40,559 bases of DNA from a virus (IMGVR_UViG_2541047813_000005:1-40559); one strand, 5' to 3'. Numbered from the stretch's first letter, positions 224-40,559 are shown. Numbers and translations are program-made. Notes: generated by a model not told the origin, from the sequence alone.

Positions 224-1738
224 GTGTATTTGATATCGTATGTGGCAACAAAAAATGGAGTTACAATCTTGAAAGTAAGCGAGTTATCTAGCCAAATTGG
301 CCGACTTTACGGCTTAAACAACATCAACATAATTATGGGCCGAAACGGTGCGGGAAAAAGTCGTTTCCTTCGTGATATCGAACAAACAATCAGCCAGAAC
401 AAGCAGCAATTTTATGTCCGGTATGTAAGTCCAGAGCGAGCAGGATCGTTCAAGCGTGATGGCACCGTCCTCACAAATATGAGCGACAACCCCGAATGGC
501 TGAGGCACACTCGGGCAGTTAATCAGGCAAGCAACTTCAAAGCTGCATCGGCTATGCTATTTCGCGAGGCCGAGACGCTTTACTTACGTCGACTTGCCAA
601 TACTCCGGAAATTCGAACTGATCTAACGCGAAACTTTCAGACAGACCGATTAAGTAAAATTAATCAGCTTCTCACTAACATTTCGCTCGAGATGGGTAAT
701 GTCGATTATGAGTTTCGATCACTTGTAGATGGTCAGATTATTGATCCGGCCCAAATCAGTAGCGGTGAATCGGAAGCGGTTGCATTAGCCGCGGAAATCA
801 TCTATTTCTTCGACACAATAGATCCGGAGAAATTCAACGTACTCCTCCTCGATGAGCCTGATGTACATCTGCACCCCGACCTCCAAGCTAGACTGGGCAA
901 GCTGATAATCAGTATGCTCGACGAATTTAGAACACACGCGAACAGTATTGCCATATGCTTATCCACCCATAGTTCCCCGCTCGTCTGTTCTCTTGCCGCC
1001 TCCCCATATGTATCAATCGGCACGAAGAGCTTTGCAGTGAATGAAATCTCATTGATACCGGCCAGCGATGAACTTCGAAAGATTGCACCATTCTTCGGGC
1101 ACCCCCTATCGCTTTCTCTTAGCGAAGACGCTGCATTAATTTTGGAAGGAGAGGACGACGAACGAGTCTGGCAACAAGCGGCCAGAACATCACAGGGTCG
1201 AATAAAAATCTTTCCCGTACTAGCAGGTAGCGTAGATCAACAGAGTCAACTTGAGGATTTTTGCGTAGACCTCCTTAGTACACTCTATGACAATCCAATC
1301 GCCTTTTCCCTTCGTGATGGCGATGGTGTAATCAACGAGTCGCTTGAACATCGCCTACCTCTTAAACGCTATCGCTTACGATGCTACGCTATCGAAAATG
1401 TTCTTTTGACTGATTCATGCCTTGCAGTAATGAATGTTACATGGGTGGAATTTGTAGACGCAGCCAAAAAATGGGTTGAGGATAATCAAACACACTCCGA
1501 CATAGCGTTGATTGCAAAACTAATGGAATCGAACGACCGATTGCGTCACAAGAAGATCAAGAAAATCCGCCAACTCGTCTGTGCTATTGTTGAGTGTAAA
1601 AAACCTTGGGAGGTAGTAGTTGGACAAGCAATCGGGGCATTGACCAGAGAAGACCTTGAAAACTCGAATATGTTGATCGATTTTCTTGGAGGAGAGATGG
1701 TCAGCGACGTCATCTTCAGGGACGCAATAAACCCATGA
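224..1738 (+). CDS. ABC-type ATPase fused to Toprim/OLD-like nuclease domain (candidate anti-phage defence protein)
   Basis: 504-aa ORF; Walker A 'GRNGAGKS', Walker B/D-loop 'LLLDEPDVHLHP', H-loop-like 'STHSSP'; C-terminal acidic motifs 'ILEGEDDE' and 'LRDGDG' resembling the Toprim Glu and DxD; likely true start TTG at 269 (GGAG 8 nt upstream). Confidence 0.65.
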   Translation: MYLISYVATKNGVTILKVSELSSQIGRLYGLNNINIIMGRNGAGKSRFLRDIEQTISQNKQQFYVRYVSPERAGSFKRDGTVLTNMSDNPEWLRHTRAVNQASNFKAASAMLFREAETLYLRRLANTPEIRTDLTRNFQTDRLSKINQLLTNISLEMGNVDYEFRSLVDGQIIDPAQISSGESEAVALAAEIIYFFDTIDPEKFNVLLLDEPDVHLHPDLQARLGKLIISMLDEFRTHANSIAICLSTHSSPLVCSLAASPYVSIGTKSFAVNEISLIPASDELRKIAPFFGHPLSLSLSEDAALILEGEDDERVWQQAARTSQGRIKIFPVLAGSVDQQSQLEDFCVDLLSTLYDNPIAFSLRDGDGVINESLEHRLPLKRYRLRCYAIENVLLTDSCLAVMNVTWVEFVDAAKKWVEDNQTHSDIALIAKLMESNDRLRHKKIKKIRQLVCAIVECKKPWEVVVGQAIGALTREDLENSNMLIDFLGGEMVSDVIFRDAINP

Positions 1739-1753
1739 GAATGACCTGATACT

Positions 1754-2149
1754 ATGACCACGATTGATCCGCCCTCATGGTATCAGTATTTATTTTATAA
1801 CCCGCCTCTCAATACACCAAGAGATTGCGGTAAAGTGGAGCAGCATGATTACCAGCTTTATCTGGCGATAAATGATATTGAGCATACGAAAACGAAAGCA
1901 ATGTCATCTAAGACCAATAGTATCTGCGAGCAGTTCCATAAAACGATACTGAACGAGTTTTATCAGGTGACGTTCCGCAAAAAGTTATATGATGATCTTG
2001 AAGCATTACAATCGGTTCTTGATGAATGGCGGGTTCACTATAATAATGAGCGAACCCATCAGGGAAAAATGTGCAGTGGCCGAACGCCGATGGAAACGTT
2101 ACTTGATGGAAAGCACATCTGGGATGAGAAAAACTTAAGCCAGATGTAA
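1754..2149 (+). pseudogene. IS transposase C-terminal remnant (DDE/rve integrase-core fragment)
   Basis: 131-aa ORF abutting the ATPase stop; C-terminal 'EWRVHYNNERTHQGKMCSGRTPMETL' matches the conserved tail of rve-type transposases; no N-terminal or DD part present. Confidence 0.55.
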
Positions 2150-2242
2150 TCTGACAGATACCTTTATAAATAGCCGGTAATTGTCAGATCAGGTCTGATC
2201 TAATACAACTTAACTGTGTTATGAGCAATACTGAGGATGGAT

Positions 2243-3013
2243 ATGGAACCAGAGAAATTTGCTGAAACTGCAATAGGATTTACCAAAAGCCCTCTTGGTA
2301 TCATTGCACTCTTTATTGTTCTCGTTTATGGATTTGCCTCTTTCGTCGTTGGCTTTGGTAATGGCTTATCAGAGCATATAGCTCCCCTTATTTATTTCAT
2401 GGTTTTCTTTCCTGTCATTGTGTTTCTTGGCTTTCTCTGGCTTGTTGCGAAACATCATAATAAGCTTTACGGGCCGTCAGATTTCAAAGATGAAAATAAT
2501 TTTTTAAGAGCGCAAATAGCTACAGCAGCATCATTGACCGCCGCCACAGCAAAACAGCCTGAAAATAGTGCAGGGGTCACTGAAAGCCAACTGCGAAAAA
2601 TCGTCAACGTTGTATCCAATGCAAAACGGCAGAGTAAGCATGAAAAATGGCGAAATCGTATTTTATGGGTGGATGATCGACCAGAAAATAATGTTTACGA
2701 AAGACAGGCATTTGAGGCACAGGGAATAGAGTTCGCTTTAGCTCTTTCAACTGACGAAGCCTTAGAATTGTTAAAAACAAATAAGTTTGCAGCTATTATT
2801 TCGGATATGGATCGCAAAGAAGGGGCGCAAGAAGGTTATGTCTTACTAGAAAGATTACGCGCAATGGGAGACAAAACTCCTTTTATGATCTATGCGTCCT
2901 CAGATCTACCAGAGCACAAGAGAATGGCGAGAGAAAGAGGTGCAATTGGCTCCACTAATCGAGCAGAAGAACTCTTTCAAATTGTCATGGGTGCGATTAC
3001 CAATGGCTCATAA
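2243..3013 (+). CDS. Membrane protein with two N-terminal TM helices and C-terminal CheY-like receiver (REC)-like domain
   Basis: ORF 2237..3013; ATG at 2243 preceded by GAGGA; hydrophobic segments 'LGIIALFIVLVYGFASFVVGFG' and 'LIYFMVFFPVIVFLGFLWLV'; REC-like pattern 'ILWVDD', 'AAIISDMDR', 'FMIYASSD'; AT-rich codon usage. Confidence 0.55.
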   Translation: MEPEKFAETAIGFTKSPLGIIALFIVLVYGFASFVVGFGNGLSEHIAPLIYFMVFFPVIVFLGFLWLVAKHHNKLYGPSDFKDENNFLRAQIATAASLTAATAKQPENSAGVTESQLRKIVNVVSNAKRQSKHEKWRNRILWVDDRPENNVYERQAFEAQGIEFALALSTDEALELLKTNKFAAIISDMDRKEGAQEGYVLLERLRAMGDKTPFMIYASSDLPEHKRMARERGAIGSTNRAEELFQIVMGAITNGS

Positions 3014-3263: not shown

Positions 3264-3409
3264 TTAAAGTTAGTTGGAAAGGCTTAATTTACTATTTATA
3301 GCCAGTCCTACTCCCACTCAATTATTTACGACAACCATAACCAATTGAGTGATAACACTTTTCCAAGCCTCAACTTTTCCCGTACCGTTTTATATACCGT
3401 CACCGGAAA

Positions 3410-3907
3410 TCAGTGCCACGATTTTTGCTTCTTCAGTGAATCGTATTGCTGCTCGCAGAATTCCCCTGCGATACGATACTTTTCAGCCTCAGCTGCTGTT
3501 GCGTTGTAAACTCGGTTGCTTTCTTCAAGCATGTCGGCGAGCACACCGATGACCTTGCTGGCTGGCGTGCCAGGTGGGAAAGATCCGGTATAGTGTTCGG
3601 CGAGCCGCCTGGTTTTGTCAAGCTCGGCGCGCATGCTGTCAGCAGCGGAATTAGCATACTCAGCATCAGCACGCGCCGCATCGATACGGGATTGTGCTTC
3701 ACGTTCAATTTGTGTTTTCTCCTGCTCACGCTGTGACCTTAACTTATCATCAGCCTGTTTCTGATCTTCCTTCGCCTGCGCATACCCGGCATCGTACTGA
3801 CGGATGCCGTGCACATTCCAGGCAACAACTCCTGATATGACCAGAACAGCAAGCATCGCCACGATAAGTAACTGTTTACGGTATGCTTTTACAAATGCCC
3901 AGATCAT
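3410..3907 (-). CDS. Rz-like i-spanin (inner-membrane spanin)
   Basis: 165 aa; N-terminal TM helix then charged coiled-coil-like periplasmic region; last gene of lysis cassette; overlaps endolysin stop. Confidence 0.65.
3433..3681 (-). CDS. Rz1-like o-spanin lipoprotein embedded in the +1 frame of the i-spanin gene
   Basis: Embedded ORF with signal peptide and lipobox '[12 protein letters not shown]', proline-rich mature part; start codon choice (3681 or 3666) uncertain. Confidence 0.45.
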   Translation of the reverse strand: MRRVLMLSMLIPLLTACAPSLTKPGGSPNTIPDLSHLARQPARSSVCSPTCLKKATEFTTQQQLRLKSIVSQGNSASSNTIH

Positions 3908-4533
3908 ACCGCCAGTACCTTACTTGCTGTGATGTACCGCGCACGCCGGTCGTCGATACCGTTTCTGCCACCATTGATAATCAGAGTTACACGTGCAATA
4001 TCGCCGGTATACTTCATGCATCCTTTGCTGGCGAAGAACCACGCCGCGCTACGAGCCGCATATTCGTCCTGCGCCAGCAGTTCAGGGCTCTCCAGCAGGT
4101 CAACCTTCAGACCGTTTCCGCAATCACGATAGTTATTCAAACCGGTAATCTGGATAAGTCCGCGCCCTCGGTAATTCCAGCCATCACCAGGGGCATTGTT
4201 CCCCATGCGTTTGCTGTATACCAGATTTGCGATCGCGCGCTGGCGCTCAAGTGGCAATGGTGGTTCACCAGCACGGCGCCCCAGTGCATTAGCCTGCCCC
4301 TGAGTGAGACGCCCAGCCCGAACGAAGTTAGCCAGTCCGCTGACACTGTAGTTGAAATTCTCCTCCAATCTGGTGAAGCCCCCAGACTCATGCCCGACCT
4401 GAGCAATAAACATTGCCTGATCTTCTGGTTTGCTGATACCAAACTCTTTCATAGCAGAAGTTATATGCGAGAACCAGCGTGCGGCCAGCGCCTCGCTAAT
4501 ACCAGCAGCTCGCTGGAATTGTTTAATCTCCAT
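3904..4533 (-). CDS. Endolysin, glycoside hydrolase family 19 (chitinase-like) type
   Basis: 209 aa; '[12 protein letters not shown]' and '[12 protein letters not shown]' motifs typical of GH19 phage endolysins; between holin and spanins. Confidence 0.8.
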
Positions 4534-4831
4534 GTTTAGACCTCGTTATTTTGAAAATCTGAACGACGTTACCGCGAGTTTTAAGAACCGCAGCAAGCAT
4601 GACAGCGTTGATAATGACCTCAGATAAATCCACAGCCATTGGCGTGCGTAACCAGATTGCATAGACGACACGAACAGGAATACTGGCCGCAGCAACAATA
4701 AGGAAATAAGCAAGCCACCCTCCCCATCTTCGGTGTTGTGAACCGTTACGCCGGAATGTGACAACACGAATTGCTATACCAGTACAAATAACTGCATTGG
4801 TGATAAGCAAAAAAAACTCATGCGTTACCAT
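4523..4831 (-). CDS. Putative holin/antiholin (small membrane protein)
   Basis: 102 aa with several hydrophobic helices, immediately upstream of and overlapping the endolysin gene. Confidence 0.5.
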
Positions 4832-5222
4832 CGTCTTTTCTCCCCGGAATTAACTCGCGTGGATTATCTGAACGGTGATAGAGCCAGATGCCAATTCGAA
4901 CTGCGACGATTGCTGACACGAATGCACCAGCAGAGAAAACAATCCCTTTCTCAAAAGAGTCCTGTGTGATGGTAGGGATCAGGGTGGCTATGCCGATAAG
5001 AATTGATGCTGCTGGTTTGTAAAAGAGAAGACCGCAAAGAAAGCTGAGCATCGACAGGAGCACCCGGCGGCGGATTGGATATTCTACAGCAGAGGTAACA
5101 AAAATTACTGCACCAGCCAAAGAACCCAACGCCACTTCTGGAGGTACTCCAGCTATTACTGCCGCAAGAGAACTCATACTAAGCCACTGATTTAAAGACT
5201 CACTAGTTAGTTGAACTGACAT
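4818..5222 (-). CDS. Putative holin / lysis-cassette membrane protein
   Basis: 134 aa, multiple predicted TM segments, first gene of the lysis cassette, overlaps next gene by 14 nt. Confidence 0.45.
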   Translation of the reverse strand: MSVQLTSESLNQWLSMSSLAAVIAGVPPEVALGSLAGAVIFVTSAVEYPIRRRVLLSMLSFLCGLLFYKPAASILIGIATLIPTITQDSFEKGIVFSAGAFVSAIVAVRIGIWLYHRSDNPRELIPGRKDDGNA

Positions 5223-5378
5223 AAAGACCGCCGATTACTGTGTATAATCCACCCCATTGGTTATTGGGTTTATAATACACATAAACCATATATGAATTAA
5301 ATTTTATGAGTCCACCTATCTCTAAATTACCCGTGAGGTGATATTGTTTCGTATCGCTATTTCCTACAGTATGGATAT

Positions 5379-5740
5379 ATGAATAACAGACATAATTGCT
5401 TTGACGTGATCAGGCTTATCGCATCACTTGTAGTCCTTGTAAGCCATCAATACCCAATTAGCGGCAGACCTGAGCCTTGCTTTTTCGGACTTACGTCGAT
5501 AGGTGGCATTGCTGTAATTGCTTTTTTCGCCCAACTAAACGTAACATCTTCGAAAAATATGCAAAGATTAGGATCAATCAGCGGATGATTTTTATCCATT
5601 CATTTTGCGCGGGTAAGTTATGTGGTGGGTTATCGGCATCCTTTCCGTGGTTCTCATCGTGGCGACGCTTGTCGTTAGGTCACATCTGCAGGATATTGAT
5701 AATGACTATTAGCCATAAGTGGTTTCAACGCTTTGGGTAA
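5379..5740 (+). pseudogene. Truncated/frameshifted acyltransferase-3 family (O-antigen acetyltransferase-like) lysogenic-conversion gene remnant
   Basis: N-terminus 'MNNRHNCFDVIRLIASLVVLVSHQ' matches the acyltransferase_3 start motif; reading frame breaks after about 70 aa; only about 120 codons remain before the convergent tailspike gene. Confidence 0.5.
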
Positions 5741-8078
5741 TGTAGTAGGCCACCCAGTTACCTGACTCATTAAATCTGTAAGCACAATTCAAACGAATCG
5801 GACCGATATTATTGAATGTGCTGAGCATTGTCCCACCAATACCATTTTTAACCAAAACTGTTGGGTTAGCAGATGATGACCCGGCTATCTTTATGTAAAC
5901 AATATCACCAACTACGGCAGACACTTTATCCAGCTCAATTGAATAGGTGAAGGCACCTGTACCAGCACTCATGATGATGTAGTACCTGGAGGGGTCAAGC
6001 CTTGGTTCTATTGTTAAAGTCCCAGCTGCTGCCACAGTGTGGTCGAGAAAGGTTCTCACCTGGAGGCTTGTATTTTGTGGAAACCTCGCCCTTGCCCTGT
6101 TGAAAGCGGGATCCATCACTGCGTAAAGTGGGCGAACGTTGTTTCTGTAGGATCTAACCAGAACATCACTACCGTGGAAGTCGTTGCTTTGTGATCCAGA
6201 AAGTGAGTGAACTGCCTCGACCTGGTTAATTGTCCCCTCTCCGACATAGCAGTCAGGGCTATTAACCACAAAATCGACGAACCTGATGTTTTGCGCAAAG
6301 TATGAGTTCAGGCGGAATGTGCTGTTTGTCGAGTTAACTACTGACTGAGCATTTGTGATTGAGTTGCCGACGATTGCGTGAATAGAGTTGATAGTCACTT
6401 CCTGGCAGTCAACCAGAAGCACCGCATCGTAAACAAGGTCAGTGGCAAATCCATCACTTTTATAGACTTCAATGTTTCCGATTTGCAGGGATGGCCTGTT
6501 TCTGGCTCGTACTCCGTTTTGCTTAACGTTGACGTGTACGTTATCGATAAATCCACCTGGCTCGCTGGCTGGGTTGGTTAGGTCGATTCCAACAAATGCC
6601 CCAAGCCCTTCGCTGTCCTTGACAACAAACCCTTCAACGCCGTCACTCAGTTCGACAAACTTCCACCAGTTGTTTGTGTTGAATCTGATGTCTACACCTA
6701 CGTTACCTCGAACGGACTTCATCTTAACGGCCACGCACTGGAATTGCGTACCTTCAACCTGCTGCACGTTATAGCTGCCGTATCCAGTGACATGCACTGA
6801 GCCGCTAAAAGCGTCGCCAATCAGCATGCCATTTACCCACGAATACTGTAGCACCGTCAGGTCATCACGCCCCTGTTGAGGACCGAAATGCGCTCCTAAT
6901 TTGAACTTCGCCCGGTGCGCAGTGAACATTTCCTCCCTGAGTGGAGTAAGAATACCGTACCGACCATTTCCGTTTTCCAGGCGAATCATGAATTTTCCGA
7001 TGTCGGCTTCTCCCTGGGAATAACTGGACTCCGGGTAGCTAACGGCCAGACCTACGGTCGATGCTGAGTCAGCATCCTTCACGCATAACTGGGTTTCTGT
7101 CCCAGCCGTATAAATTTTCACGCCATAGGGAACGGTTACGCACGCCGTCAGTGCGGAATCCCCTGTATGGTAGTTATCCATATCCAGAGAAACACCATTT
7201 GTAGGGCTCACCAGATATTTTCCTGCTGGCCAATAGAGTACCTTAGCTCCGCAATTGGACCAGCGGTTTAGGGCAAGAGTGTCATCTGCAATACCATCTC
7301 CCTTTGCTCCGAAGTGGTAAGGGGTAAGAAGATAGGTGTTGTGCTGATGTTGAGTAATAGTTACAGAATTAGCATAAGGTTGTTTAACTGCAACTAAAGC
7401 ATCCCCCTTTCCATCGGAAGAACTTGCTAACTGAATAAGCACATCAGATGCTGAACCAGATGGAGGAATAACAACAATCGCATTACCATCATTATCAAAT
7501 GCTGGCATCATATTCCGCCGAACTGCTGCTGGAGGTAACTGATTTATTGGCTCAGGAACTCGGAGAGTTCGGCTAAGGTTAGAGAATACAATGGTATCTA
7601 CATAGTTTTTTGTAGCTGCATCCTGAGGGTCGCGTGGGTCTTTCAGATTACGAATATAGTTATTAAGTGCGTCATACCAATTCGCTATACTGGATGGCTT
7701 ACACAACGCCAGCCGGAACCAGCTTCGAACCTGCTGAATCAGCATCGTTAGCTTATCAAAAGCATCCTCATGCACTTCTGCAAAGAACTTACCCTGATTA
7801 CGCAAATCAGTTTCCTGCGTAACCGGGAGGTCTCGTGATATAGAAATCTGATAACCGTTAGCCAACGCCTTCGACAGAATTACATTACCGCCGTTGTACC
7901 CTCCCGCACCAGTTACTGTGTAATCAGTATCAAGAGCCAGCACAGCAATATTTTCATCAAGGTCAACCACCTGAACAACCAGGTCTGATTTTTTGAAAAT
8001 ACGGAAGGTATACGGAAATGATGTCGTAACGCCGTTACCTGTGTATTCGTTGTGGTCAACTTCGGTTGAGACCGTCAT
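5709..8078 (-). CDS. Tailspike / tail fibre protein (receptor-binding)
   Basis: 789 aa; N-terminus 'MTVSTEVDHNEYTGNGVTTSFPYTFRIF' resembles the conserved particle-binding domain of podovirus tailspikes; Gly/Asn/Val-rich body consistent with beta-helix. Confidence 0.75.
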   Translation of the reverse strand: MTVSTEVDHNEYTGNGVTTSFPYTFRIFKKSDLVVQVVDLDENIAVLALDTDYTVTGAGGYNGGNVILSKALANGYQISISRDLPVTQETDLRNQGKFFAEVHEDAFDKLTMLIQQVRSWFRLALCKPSSIANWYDALNNYIRNLKDPRDPQDAATKNYVDTIVFSNLSRTLRVPEPINQLPPAAVRRNMMPAFDNDGNAIVVIPPSGSASDVLIQLASSSDGKGDALVAVKQPYANSVTITQHQHNTYLLTPYHFGAKGDGIADDTLALNRWSNCGAKVLYWPAGKYLVSPTNGVSLDMDNYHTGDSALTACVTVPYGVKIYTAGTETQLCVKDADSASTVGLAVSYPESSYSQGEADIGKFMIRLENGNGRYGILTPLREEMFTAHRAKFKLGAHFGPQQGRDDLTVLQYSWVNGMLIGDAFSGSVHVTGYGSYNVQQVEGTQFQCVAVKMKSVRGNVGVDIRFNTNNWWKFVELSDGVEGFVVKDSEGLGAFVGIDLTNPASEPGGFIDNVHVNVKQNGVRARNRPSLQIGNIEVYKSDGFATDLVYDAVLLVDCQEVTINSIHAIVGNSITNAQSVVNSTNSTFRLNSYFAQNIRFVDFVVNSPDCYVGEGTINQVEAVHSLSGSQSNDFHGSDVLVRSYRNNVRPLYAVMDPAFNRARARFPQNTSLQVRTFLDHTVAAAGTLTIEPRLDPSRYYIIMSAGTGAFTYSIELDKVSAVVGDIVYIKIAGSSSANPTVLVKNGIGGTMLSTFNNIGPIRLNCAYRFNESGNWVAYYITQSVETTYG

Positions 8079-8182
8079 GTTAAATCTCCAGATAGTCGCA
8101 GCACCCGTTGCGCCGCATATCTGGTTATTCTATTACCTGAAAAACCAGATATGGATAGCAAGACTGCAAATACGAATAGATA

Positions 8183-8197
8183 TTACCTTTCGGGTAA
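8183..8197. promoter_or_regulatory. Palindromic operator-like site ATTACC-TTTCG-GGTAAT
   Basis: Perfect TTACC-N5-GGTAA dyad in the intergenic region between the tailspike start and the small plus-strand ORF. Confidence 0.45.
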
Positions 8198-8272
8198 TTT
8201 GCAAAACGTGCTGGATAGCCAATAAATTATTTGGTACTGTTTATTAATACAGTTATTACATGGAGAGATAAG

Positions 8273-8530
8273 ATGCAGCGGTATCACTATCCACTGGAAG
8301 AAGGATTTACCGAAAGGATTCACACGCCGGGAGGCGTCAGGTCACTGGTGGAGGGATCGCACTTGATGAAATTACTCCGGGATCTCGATAAGGATGGATT
8401 TAATGTCGATGGCCCACTTGCCGAACTGACTGCACTGATTAACTACGTCACCAGCTCACAGATGTCTATGCAGGATCTGCAAACACATCTCGACTATTGT
8501 GCCGAACAACTACGAAAACAAACCACATAA
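8273..8530 (+). CDS. Hypothetical small protein (85 aa), opposite strand to late genes
   Basis: ORF 8231..8530; ATG 8273 with GGAG 7 nt upstream; operator-like site upstream; no recognisable motif. Confidence 0.4.
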   Translation: MQRYHYPLEEGFTERIHTPGGVRSLVEGSHLMKLLRDLDKDGFNVDGPLAELTALINYVTSSQMSMQDLQTHLDYCAEQLRKQTT

Positions 8531-8552
8531 AGAAAAGGCCGCGAAAGCGGCC
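8528..8552 (-). terminator. Hairpin terminator after small membrane-protein gene
   Basis: ggccgcgaaagcggcc hairpin (8537..8552) followed on the minus strand by UUUUCU. Confidence 0.5.
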
Positions 8553-8561
8553 TGTGACATG

Positions 8562-34226: not shown

Positions 34227-34457
34227 TCATGAGTAGAAGAAGTATGCCAGTTCTGCTTTTGAGCGCAGCCATTGTCTTGTTTTACAGGCTTTAAAAAGCC
34301 CATTCATCAATACTTTACCTGGCATTTTGCGCTTACCTGTTAAGTGAGTCTGGATATAGTGACTCGTCGTTCCGGCTTCCTGTGCGAAGGCTTCACGCTC
34401 ATCCGGAGTAAGTGCAAGCCAGTGCTTTTTGAAATCGAAATGTCCGTTATCGCTCAT
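34227..34457 (-). CDS. Cro-like HTH regulator
   Basis: 76 aa; HTH-like 'EAFAQEAGTTSHYIQTHLTGKR'; divergent from repressor-like gene across an operator-rich region. Confidence 0.55.
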   Translation of the reverse strand: MSDNGHFDFKKHWLALTPDEREAFAQEAGTTSHYIQTHLTGKRKMPGKVLMNGLFKACKTRQWLRSKAELAYFFYS

Positions 34458-34493: not shown

Positions 34494-34556
34494 TCACCCA
34501 TAAGGTAACAAAAATCAAGGATAGTTACCCATGAGGTGCATTTACCTGTTGGGTAA
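34494..34556. promoter_or_regulatory. Immunity-region operator cluster (three TTACC-N5-GGTAA-type dyads) with divergent promoters
   Basis: Sites 34494..34508 (TCACC-cataa-GGTAA), 34525..34539 (TTACC-catga-GGTGC), 34542..34556 (TTACC-tgttg-GGTAA) between the cro-like and repressor-like starts. Confidence 0.5.
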
Positions 34557-34611: not shown

Positions 34612-35196
34612 ATGAAAAGTATCCAGGACGTCCGCAGGCAAAATCTCAACGACTTGATCGACCGTGAATTCAATGGTGTTCAGACGCGGATGGCAGAAAA
34701 ACTTGGAACTCAGGCAAATCTGGTAAACCGCTGGGCTCTTGGCAAGAAGGTTATCGGCGACCAGGTTGCACGAAAAATTGAAGCTGCCGCCAATAAACCC
34801 CGTAACTGGCTTGATATCGATCGCTCGCTTTCTCAGGAAGGTTTTCAGCCTGTCGGCCCAAGCGACATTGGTCAGCTGGCGGCTCACAACCTGGAACGCT
34901 GGATGAGCGAAAGCCGCGACCTTTCAACGCAGGGAAAACTTCACCGCGCATCCGGCGTCGCCCAGGTGACAATCAGCCGCCTGTTAAACAATGAGGTCAG
35001 CGTTTCCATTTCCACCCTGGAGAATGTTGCATCCGCATTCGGGCGTCATGGCTATGAATTACTGATTCACCCGCACGACCCTGCGACTATCAACTATGAC
35101 CGCTCGCGCTACGCATTGTTACCCGAAACCGAGAAAGCAAAGATCGAAAGTTACATTGAATTTGTCATCAACCAGAACGAAAAAAACAAACAATAA
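34612..35196 (+). CDS. Repressor-like DNA-binding protein with two HTH-like regions (candidate phage repressor)
   Basis: 194 aa; 'QTRMAEKLGTQANLVNRW' and 'ASGVAQVTISRLLNNE' HTH-like segments; no obvious S24 peptidase motif. Confidence 0.55.
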   Translation: MKSIQDVRRQNLNDLIDREFNGVQTRMAEKLGTQANLVNRWALGKKVIGDQVARKIEAAANKPRNWLDIDRSLSQEGFQPVGPSDIGQLAAHNLERWMSESRDLSTQGKLHRASGVAQVTISRLLNNEVSVSISTLENVASAFGRHGYELLIHPHDPATINYDRSRYALLPETEKAKIESYIEFVINQNEKNKQ

Positions 35197-39308: not shown

Positions 39309-40559
39309 CTATTCCCCCGCCATCCACTTCTCAAACTTCGACGGGGAGAACGGAATCAGATCCGTATGCTCCCCGTTAATCCAGGAATCAATCATATCGG
39401 ACCACTGCTGCAACATGTAGGCGCGCTGCCTGGCGTATTCCGCTTTGTTATATACGGCGCGCACACCTTTCTGCTCATGTGCCAGAGCCTTTTCAATCCA
39501 GTCTGAAGGATAACCAGCCTCATGCAACAACGTACTGGCTGTACGGCGCATATCGTGTACGGTGAAGTCCTGAATATGCTCACCATCTTCATTTATTATT
39601 TTCACCGTTCTGTCGATCAGAGAGTTCAGCGCGGCATTAGATAATGGCTTCCTGAAATTGTAACGACCAGGAACCAGATATTCACTTCCACCAGCGCACA
39701 TCTGCAACCCGACCAATATATCCTGAGCCTGTTTAGGCAGGTAAATAACATGCGCCCGGCTTCCCTTCATGCGGTCTGAAGGAATTGTCCATGTCCATTT
39801 TTTAAAATCTATTTCATCCCACGTTGCATTGGTGAATTCGCCCTTACGAACCATAGTGATAAGCACCAGTTTTAAAGCCATTTTCATAGTGCCCATAGCA
39901 CCAATGGCATCCAACGTGCGGAAGAACAGGCCAATTTCTTCTGGTGTCAGTGTTCGCTCTCGTGGTTTAAATATGGCGATAGACGAAGGTTTAATGTCAG
40001 CCGCAGGATTAAACAAACCATGACCACGGTCATTGGCGTGACGGTATACGCTGCTGATGATCTCCCTGGCCTGTACTGCTGTTGCCCGACCACCGCGTTC
40101 GACAATCCGGTCACACAAATCACGAACCATCGATGTGGTAATTTCAGCCATCATTTTGTTGCCAAGAACCGGAAGTATGTCACGGTCGATCACCGCCTGC
40201 TTCATTGCGCGGGTACTGTCAGCCAGGATGACGTGTTTCATATAACTGTCGGTATGTACCGCAAACGTCTCGGCACCACGAATCTTTTTGATACCGTCAC
40301 GTTTAGCCGCAGCCGGCGACTGGCCTGCTTTAAGCAGCTTCTTTGCAGCAATCAGTTCTTCTCGAGCTTCTGCTAGACTGATACCGTCACGCCCATACTG
40401 CCCGATTACCAGTGTTTCGCGGCGACCGTTGATACGGTAGTCATAGCGAAACGAGACCGTGCCTGACGTAAGCACAGCTACATACAGCCCGTCACGATCG
40501 GAGACCTTGTACAGTTTGTCCTGCGGCTTGAGGTTTTTTAATTTTGTATCGGTAAGCAC
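39309..40559 (-). CDS. int: Tyrosine-type phage integrase (start at or just beyond window edge)
   Basis: 416 aa; N-terminus 'LTDTKLKNLKPQDKLYKVSDRDGLYVAV' typical of phage integrase arm-binding domain; C-terminal 'HDMRRT...AGY' region; first codon GTG at 40557..40559. Confidence 0.85.
   Translation of the reverse strand: MLTDTKLKNLKPQDKLYKVSDRDGLYVAVLTSGTVSFRYDYRINGRRETLVIGQYGRDGISLAEAREELIAAKKLLKAGQSPAAAKRDGIKKIRGAETFAVHTDSYMKHVILADSTRAMKQAVIDRDILPVLGNKMMAEITTSMVRDLCDRIVERGGRATAVQAREIISSVYRHANDRGHGLFNPAADIKPSSIAIFKPRERTLTPEEIGLFFRTLDAIGAMGTMKMALKLVLITMVRKGEFTNATWDEIDFKKWTWTIPSDRMKGSRAHVIYLPKQAQDILVGLQMCAGGSEYLVPGRYNFRKPLSNAALNSLIDRTVKIINEDGEHIQDFTVHDMRRTASTLLHEAGYPSDWIEKALAHEQKGVRAVYNKAEYARQRAYMLQQWSDMIDSWINGEHTDLIPFSPSKFEKWMAGE

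Follow-up and report, generated by a model that had tools for sequence, protein, structure and literature searches.

Genes that modify the O-antigen have already been described behind the tailspike genes of Lederberg- and Uetakeviruses, and exchange of receptor-binding domains between the two genera is also documented (PMC10408124). The same study delineated the tailspike anchor at 205 aa in phiV10 and at 124 aa in HK620, and noted variable DNA downstream of the tailspike gene, with no destruction of a conversion gene reported (PMC10408124). Proteins of the acyltransferase-3 (AT3) family have about ten transmembrane helices in ~320 residues, and two of their motifs are essential: R/K-X10-H in the first transmembrane helix (TM1) and RXXR in the first cytoplasmic loop (PMC9558356). 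In the Shigella phage Sf6, the stand-alone AT3 protein Oac (gene 15; ~335 aa) brings about serotype conversion and superinfection exclusion, and its gene lies directly behind the tailspike gene and convergent with it. In every sequenced relative of epsilon15 and phiV10 that we examined, the slot behind the tailspike gene held an O-antigen modification gene transcribed towards the tailspike: oac (338 aa) in phiV10, an AT3-SGNH acetylase of 624 aa in Tyrion, an acetylase of 640 aa in 65FD, an O-antigen-ligase-like gene in the epsilon15-like phage VB_ST_E15, and gtrA together with an acetylase annotated as two ORFs in SPN1S. The slot varies among E. coli prophages, in which we found either an intact acyltransferase gene (L017) or an empty slot (L018 and L019, where 221 and 245 bp separate the bordering genes). 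Conversion genes behind tailspikes and receptor-binding-domain swaps are already known (PMC10408124, PMC9558356); what is new here is a resolved joint at which a receptor-binding-domain swap most probably deleted the conversion gene.

We analyzed a stretch of viral DNA of 40,559 nucleotides (IMGVR_UViG_2541047813_000005:1-40559; hereafter, the window), which from about position 3400 to 40559 is an epsilon15/phiV10-type prophage of the genus Uetakevirus. Its Rz-like, GH19 endolysin, holin and holin-like genes (3410-5222, minus strand) have the order and orientation of the phiV10 lysis cassette. The gene for the holin-like membrane protein (4818-5222, minus strand; Pfam Phage_holin_8, E 8e-12), which is syntenic with phiV10 p27 and epsilon15 p23, is the first of the cassette and forms the left border of the slot; 486 bp (5223-5708) separate it from the 3' end of the tailspike gene (5709-8078, minus strand). 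The integrase gene occupies positions 39309-40559, as expected for the orientation of the prophage, and a loss of the integrase from the left end was accordingly rejected. Backbone DNA of the Uetakevirus kind was present in 575 of 5,426 complete E. coli genomes. We also observed an islet of ~2.9 kb between yfgI and the prophage end (224-3013), encoding an AAA_15/AAA_21 ATPase (504 aa; weak PADLOC matches to PDC-M01A and AriA-like models), a fragment of an rve_3 transposase, and a protein of 258 aa that has hydrophobic segments at its N-terminus and a receiver domain. This islet, which may be a defence-type insertion, is present in the E. coli genome EC5654 (L003) and absent in L017-L019, where yfgI lies ~200 bp from the Rz-like gene.

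Within the slot, an ORF of 69 codons (69 aa) on the plus strand (5379-5588) begins like an AT3 protein. A preliminary description of the region had read positions 5379 to 5740 as a decayed, OafA-like acetyltransferase gene that is convergent with the tailspike gene and truncated on its side, in a place typical of conversion genes. The placement was confirmed: the ORF occupies the Uetakevirus conversion slot and is transcribed towards the tailspike, as are the slot genes of phiV10, Tyrion, 65FD, VB_ST_E15, SPN1S, L017 and the metagenomic contig L020 (see below), and the oac gene of Sf6 is likewise convergent with its tailspike gene. The resemblance of the N-terminus to AT3 proteins also proved to be genuine. 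In a tblastn search of 50,697 phage records, residues 1-63 matched Sf6 Oac only (51% identity, E 7e-14); in the pairwise comparison, the real similarity covered Oac residues 2-50 (52% identity), and the two proteins part company after FF, where the remnant continues with AQLNV and Oac with SISGYL. An exhaustive HMMER scan of 1.84 billion representative proteins gave 229 matches, in which the named or Pfam-tagged full-length proteins are AT3; the best match, P0001 (351 aa, PF01757), was 90% identical over residues 1-51 (E 9e-22). A profile of 188 full-length Oac-like AT3 proteins scored 77.8 bits (E 2e-25) on codons 1-51, ending in ...FFA and matching positions 25-77 of the 400 in the profile. 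The homology (5379-5531, plus strand) comprises TM1, with R12-X10-H23, and the start of TM2 ending in ...AFFA. It is collinear with the N-terminus of the AT3 family (PF01757/IPR002656) from the start codon, and intact genes are 78-89% identical to the remnant at the DNA level from the ATG to position 5531.

Several searches returned nothing. The 69-aa ORF had no Pfam match at E <= 1, PF01757 included, and the gathering threshold was not reached; PF01757 does detect Sf6 Oac, phiV10 Oac, P0001 and the L020 gene. A word-indexed protein search with the 69-aa ORF gave no match, the query being too short for the index. No related loci were found in viral contigs with the remnant fragment, P0001 had no match in GTDB species genomes or in viral contigs, and an exact 30-mer across the start codon had none in metagenome contigs, from which P0001 as query retrieved L020.

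The comparison to OafA did not survive. The closest intact relatives of the remnant have 334-362 aa and contain PF01757 only, whereas OafA-type proteins (~600-640 aa) carry a fused SGNH domain; the lost enzyme was therefore of the stand-alone Sf6-Oac type (~335-350 aa). The acetylases of Tyrion, with its fused SGNH domain, and of 65FD, whose similar length marks it as OafA type, are both unlike the remnant in this respect, although they occupy the same slot and belong to the same Pfam family (PF01757), as do phiV10 Oac and the SPN1S acetylase. Because BLASTP detected no similarity between the remnant and phiV10 Oac, the remnant is not a phiV10-type oac. Moreover, the genes of phiV10, Tyrion and 65FD are intact, unlike the remnant. 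As far as sequence comparison can tell, the remnant is a descendant of a stand-alone AT3 gene of the Sf6-Oac type, and belongs neither to OafA (AT3-SGNH) nor to the lineage of phiV10 Oac. It shares with Sf6 Oac the stand-alone type, the convergent position directly behind the tailspike gene and the R-X10-H motif, but it keeps only 51 of ~335 codons and resides in a Uetakevirus, not a Lederbergvirus; P0001, its closest full-length relative, is only ~34% identical to Sf6 Oac overall. P0001 itself is encoded on a 3.9-kb Logan contig (L011, 458-2678) directly behind a different AT3 gene (363 aa), so that the two stand in tandem. A further relative, P0151 (L012; 84% identical), occurs in another phage context, beside a gene for a 2,162-aa LPD38 protein.

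The end of the homology could be placed to the nucleotide. Three independent intact genes, those of L011 (P0001), L012 (P0151) and L020, align with the window by blastn from the ATG at 5379 to exactly 5531. L020 is particularly informative: it is a metagenomic Uetakevirus-like contig (OLRU01001298.1) with the same backbone, upstream region and start codon, and is 92.6% identical to the window over positions 3765-5531, that is, from within the Rz-like gene at the far end of the lysis cassette. Unlike the window, it continues into a complete gene, encoding an intact 337-aa PF01757 protein, which is followed by a convergent tailspike gene with a different receptor-binding domain; the C-terminus of its tailspike is unrelated to that of the window. 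The contig stops inside the tailspike gene, and the comparison thus ends before the other crossover and the ancestral anchor domain. The remnant is identical to the L020 gene at 48 of 51 amino acids and at 88.9% of nucleotides, and it runs through 51 codons without a stop or a frameshift; of the 17 nucleotide differences, 14 are at the third position of a codon. By this pattern the stump looks freshly cut rather than eroded. Since the adjacent intergenic DNA is 96% identical to L020, compared with 88.9% in the remnant, L020 is a cousin and not the parent. Past position 5531, the ORF continues for codons 52-69 and a stop (5532-5588), with 27% ungapped identity to L020 and no match to the AT3 profile, and this tail is read-through into imported DNA that is not of acyltransferase origin. 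The preliminary description placed the break of the frame after about 70 codons, which is the length of the ORF; the homology itself ends after 51 codons, at a recombination joint: by all these comparisons the gene is cleanly truncated after codon 51 (nt 5531), with no frameshift and no gradual decay.

The DNA on the other side of the joint matches a P22-like prophage, L002, which carries a tailspike with a head-binding domain and the genes ant/arc/mnt, and which in an O139:H1 strain is inserted at the lambda att site. Positions 5523-7407 of the window are 98.2% identical to positions 5988-7871 of L002. This segment includes the 177-bp 3' flank of the tailspike gene (5532-5708; L002 5997-6172) and the receptor-binding module (5709-7407, minus strand; ~aa 216/224 to 789 of the tailspike), which is exchanged with P22-like prophages and is 98% identical at the amino acid level to aa 117-690 of the L002 tailspike. 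The N-terminal anchor of the window tailspike (7408-8078, minus strand) is of the Uetakevirus type, with 59% identity to the phiV10 tailspike over residues 1-277, and does not match the L002 head-binding domain. The boundaries, at aa ~216-224 in the window and aa 117 in L002, agree with the published anchor lengths of 205 and 124 aa (PMC10408124). The two sequences differ by ~1.8% over the module, with a greater divergence in 5538-5575, so that L002 represents a relative of the donor and not the donor itself. In L002, the flank runs straight into an attP arm and a sib/tI terminator, both of lambda type.

The two homologies overlap at the joint. The blastn matches to L020, L011 and L012 end at 5531, and that to L002 begins at 5523. 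At positions 5522-5531 lies a microhomology, TTTTTTCGCC, common to the Phe-Phe-Ala codons of the AT3 gene and to the T-run of the lambda-type sib/tI terminator of the donor (joint motif TTTTTT(C)GCC). The acetyltransferase side reads TTTTTCGCC and the terminator T-run TTTTTTGCC; in the window, GCTTTTTTCGCC is followed by CAAC..., and the sequence up to GCC can be read either as Ala-Phe-Phe-Ala codons or as the L002 terminator T-run plus GCC. In three- and four-way alignments, the dozen bases past the joint still resemble the lambda-type sequence. The shared motif, at 9-10 nt with one indel, is short, and its occurrence at the joint could be coincidental.

We next surveyed the carriers of this joint. 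The region 5200-5760 (561 bp, joint included) was present in 14 of the 5,426 complete E. coli genomes, with identities of 98.5-100%; 12 carriers were from pigs (one titled O139:H1), one was a swine isolate and one a human isolate. The window's prophage lineage is mostly found in porcine strains, two of them titled O139:H1, and in such strains it shares the genome with an L002-type P22-like prophage. Most of the 14 genomes had the tailspike flank and receptor-binding domain twice, the additional copy lying in another prophage, which indicates that the recombination partners met in the same cells. A third P22-like prophage, located near dacD (L010), has the tailspike in common with them, and of the flank only 79 bp (5630-5708). 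Taken by itself, the receptor-binding domain (~98% identity; L002 6001-8245, L010 3001-5152 and L009 compared with window 5532-7407) recurs in porcine E. coli in at least three different prophage settings, namely the Uetakevirus near yfgI and two P22-like prophages, one at the lambda att site and the other near dacD, and it is often found twice per genome; EC556 (L009) has a P22-like copy that is itself split or truncated. Over 5223-5545, EC5654, the closest complete genome, matches the window at 100% identity. The two differ on the right-hand side of the tailspike gene (L003 9000-10400 compared with window 8100-8560), where EC5654 has an antA/AntB antirepressor gene and other operator copies, and the window's prophage is therefore a mosaic that is absent as such from the 5,426 genomes.

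These results lead us to the reading, to which we assign a probability of roughly 85%, that the remnant is the 5' stump of an Sf6-Oac-type conversion gene that was cut when the prophage exchanged its receptor-binding domain with a P22-like prophage. The gene would have been the lysogenic-conversion gene, for O-antigen O-acetylation, of an epsilon15/phiV10-like prophage. Its ancestor would have resembled L020, with a lysis cassette, an intergenic region containing a repressor-type operator, an intact 337-aa acetyltransferase gene and a convergent tailspike gene with a different receptor-binding domain. A resident P22-like prophage, of a type that occupies the lambda att site in porcine E. coli (strains titled O139:H1 among them), would then have recombined with it. 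The first crossover presumably fell at the boundary between tailspike anchor and receptor-binding domain, near window position 7407; the second would have been illegitimate, between the Phe-Phe-Ala codons and the T-run of the donor sib/tI terminator, within 9-10 nt of microhomology. The donor receptor-binding domain and 177 bp of its 3' flank would thereby have entered, and the old receptor-binding domain and acetyltransferase codons 52-337 would have been lost. The loss of a conversion enzyme matched to the old receptor would have cost nothing. We tentatively infer a single event, although a module swap followed by a deletion may also account for the arrangement. Compared with the swaps described previously (PMC10408124), the 177-bp 3' flank appears to have been carried along, and the outer crossover to have destroyed the conversion gene.

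The direction of transfer deserves separate consideration, as sequence similarity alone has no direction. It is conceivable that the receptor-binding domain and its flank moved from the Uetakevirus lineage into P22-like prophages, and that the truncation is older and unrelated; the presence of the domain in three prophage contexts with flanks of differing length (177 and 79 bp) would fit such a history. However, the lambda attP/sib region is the native place of the T-run seen at the joint, which in L002 forms part of the sib/tI terminator, and lambda-type bases following the joint would not be expected unless the flank derived from a phage with such an att region. In addition, the intact L020-type ancestor has a different receptor-binding domain. 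We therefore consider the opposite transfer improbable, and the lambda-type bases at the joint support a transfer from the P22-like prophage to the Uetakevirus as the likely direction.

Slightly less probable still is that the gene decayed by an internal deletion or by frameshifts: having arrived beside the present tailspike gene, or having stood there from the start, it would later have lost its middle and 3' part, and 5532-5740, which the preliminary description includes in the gene, would be degraded acetyltransferase sequence in another frame. A second-frame ORF (5477-5740) does reach the tailspike gene, and the C-terminus of Sf6 Oac weakly and non-significantly resembles one frame of the flank (E 0.97). 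However, that ORF had no Pfam match, and the profile of 188 AT3 proteins scored below zero in every frame past codon 51 and in all other frames of 5223-5760. Searches with the closest intact genes by blastn and tblastn stop at 5531; with P0001 as the tblastn query, only 5379-5531 was recovered in the whole window, and no remnant of an acetyltransferase C-terminus was detected by tblastn with Sf6 Oac, phiV10 Oac or P0001 or by the profile in six frames. The slot of 486 bp is also too small for a gene that needs >1 kb. Finally, P22-like prophages carry 5532-5708 beside the same tailspike, without an acetyltransferase and joined to a lambda-type terminator. The flank contains no recognisable gene, Rfam family or terminator, and on both strands its folding is no better than that of shuffled sequences. 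A 30-codon ORF within it (5620-5712, plus strand; MWWVIGILSVVLIVATLVVRSHLQDIDNDY), which encodes one hydrophobic helix and overlaps the tailspike stop codon by 4 nt, is a doubtful gene: it is identical in L002 at 29 of 30 aa, its first 3-4 codons are replaced in L010, and it showed no Pfam family match beyond noise and no convincing ribosome-binding site.

The intergenic region between the divergent lysis cassette and conversion gene (5223-5378) belongs to the Uetakevirus backbone, with ~73% identity to phiV10, Tyrion and other phages as far as ~5349; its 96% identity to L020 includes the operator described below and extends right up to the ATG. The preliminary description had pointed out an operator-like dyad at 5327-5341, which it took to be kept by the inactivated gene. 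The dyad is real. The 15-nt sequence TTACCCGTGAGGTGA lies within a 17-bp operator-type dyad, ATTACCCGTGAGGTGAT (5326-5342), one of ~14 TTACC-N5-GGTAA sites in the window, where ~1-2 are expected (extended form (A)TTACC-N5-GGTAA(T)). With up to one mismatch, TTACC-N5-GGTRA gave 34 strand-hits in the window compared with 2.9 expected, a number reached by 0 of 100 shuffled sequences. The 15-nt sites begin at 5327, 8183, 25130, 25747, 28649, 28667, 32167, 32229, 34157, 34494, 34525, 34542, 35254 and 35317. Three of them (34494, 34525 and 34542; 34494-34556) are clustered between a Cro-like gene (34227-34457; phrog_35) and a CI-like gene (34612-35196; HTH_3, phrog_8), and two more (35254 and 35317) lie just downstream of the latter. 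A dyad that recurs in the genome and is clustered between a repressor gene and a divergent cro-like gene is what would be expected of an operator. Other sites precede the genes for the small terminase subunit and the tailspike, as well as the lysis cassette; in front of the latter two, the centre of the site is in both cases 112 nt from the start codon on the minus strand. A paralogy of 5223-5345 and 8079-8200 was considered and rejected, as their best local alignment was weak and heavily gapped.

As regards the dyad being a regulator retained by the acetyltransferase gene, the comparison of relatives gave a different answer. The core AAATTACCC-N4-GGT is invariant at the dyad position in six Uetakeviruses with five different downstream genes. 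Because the dyad is kept in the empty slots of L018 and L019 and is missing in L017, which has a different intact acyltransferase gene, it is an element of the phage backbone and not an acetyltransferase regulator. It is most probably a backbone operator bound by the CI-like repressor, a role suggested by its copies and their positions, and it probably controls the divergent lysis operon. The dyad would persist by serving the phage's own regulation and not that of a dead gene. Like the lambdoid CI/Cro operators, the sites are 17-bp imperfect palindromes present in triplicate between divergent CI-like and Cro-like genes; unlike them, the window copies, at which binding is putative, also stand before late units (terminase, tailspike and lysis), a pattern that suggests direct repressor control of many transcription units. 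Such operator sites are reportedly described in the epsilon15 genome paper by Kropinski from 2007; a full-text literature search for their consensus gave no match. The same intergenic region contains an imperfect 19-nt inverted repeat (5239-5281) with two perfect TATAAT hexamers on the plus strand (5243-5248 and 5271-5276), the second of which is shared with L020. Neither occurs in the other five Uetakeviruses, which have CATAAA and CATCAT instead (CATTAT in phiV10), and neither has a good -35 element, although they might drive transcription towards the conversion gene in the window's lineage.

We further considered what the stump can still do. The R/K-X10-H motif is present in its translation as R12-LIASLVVLVS-H23. 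The RXXR motif, which in the relatives lies past residue 70 (KRCRRLFP in P0001 and L020, KRARRIFP in Sf6 Oac), belongs to a region that is absent from the window, and instead of the complete ten-helix AT3 domain only one and a half helices are encoded. With no RXXR loop and no sequence past the first half of TM2, the stump should, judged by its structure, have no acetyltransferase activity at all. The claim of the preliminary description that the gene is inactivated accordingly stands, there being no AT3 sequence past codon 51 in any frame. The stump is thus predicted to be unable to acetylate the O-antigen, and acetylation would be lost in vivo. The prophage is likewise predicted to have lost the acetyltransferase route of seroconversion and superinfection exclusion.

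We regard it as very unlikely that lysogens nevertheless produce a small membrane protein from the 69-aa ORF that has taken on a new role, and we rate no higher the same proposal when the choice is between this ORF and the 30-aa ORF at 5620-5712. The start codon, the upstream region (96% identical to L020) and all 51 codons are intact, the differences from L020 are mostly synonymous, and the allele is kept at 98.5-100% identity in 14 genomes. However, mostly synonymous differences would be just as expected from a divergence that took place before a recent truncation, and the 18-codon tail is accidental read-through. The 14 genomes, of which 12 are porcine isolates from similar collections, may be close relatives, so that conservation of the allele among them carries little weight. 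There is no clear Shine-Dalgarno sequence or sigma-70 promoter; a scan of 5100-5850 found no plus-strand promoter and no terminator, and Rfam families and unusual folds were likewise absent from the slot. RefSeq has no annotation at 5379-5588. If the product were real, it could disturb host O-antigen or peptidoglycan acetyltransferases or block superinfection, and its expression would be linked to lysogeny by the repressor-type operator that precedes it. The possibility that a full-length frame is masked by an error of sequencing or assembly can be dismissed, because the same 561-bp region and joint recur in 14 independently assembled complete genomes and ~860 bp of the gene are missing, not one or two bases.

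We thus return to the truncation of the conversion gene by a receptor-binding-domain swap, a case that is an ordinary result of known phage mosaicism. The prophage lineage, judging from what remains of the gene, should not O-acetylate the O-antigen of its host, and the locus should therefore be left out when seroconversion is predicted from genomes. The dispersed operator family may be useful for annotating regulation in the ~575 related E. coli prophages. The locus also bears on the recombination points around receptor-binding domains, for which further study has been called necessary (PMC10408124). It would represent a traceable change of host range with a side effect, in which both parental types are known and the joint can be narrowed down to a microhomology of 10 nt: an exchange of receptor-binding domains between two unrelated genera of podoviruses appears to have deleted a conversion gene that would have matched the old receptor.
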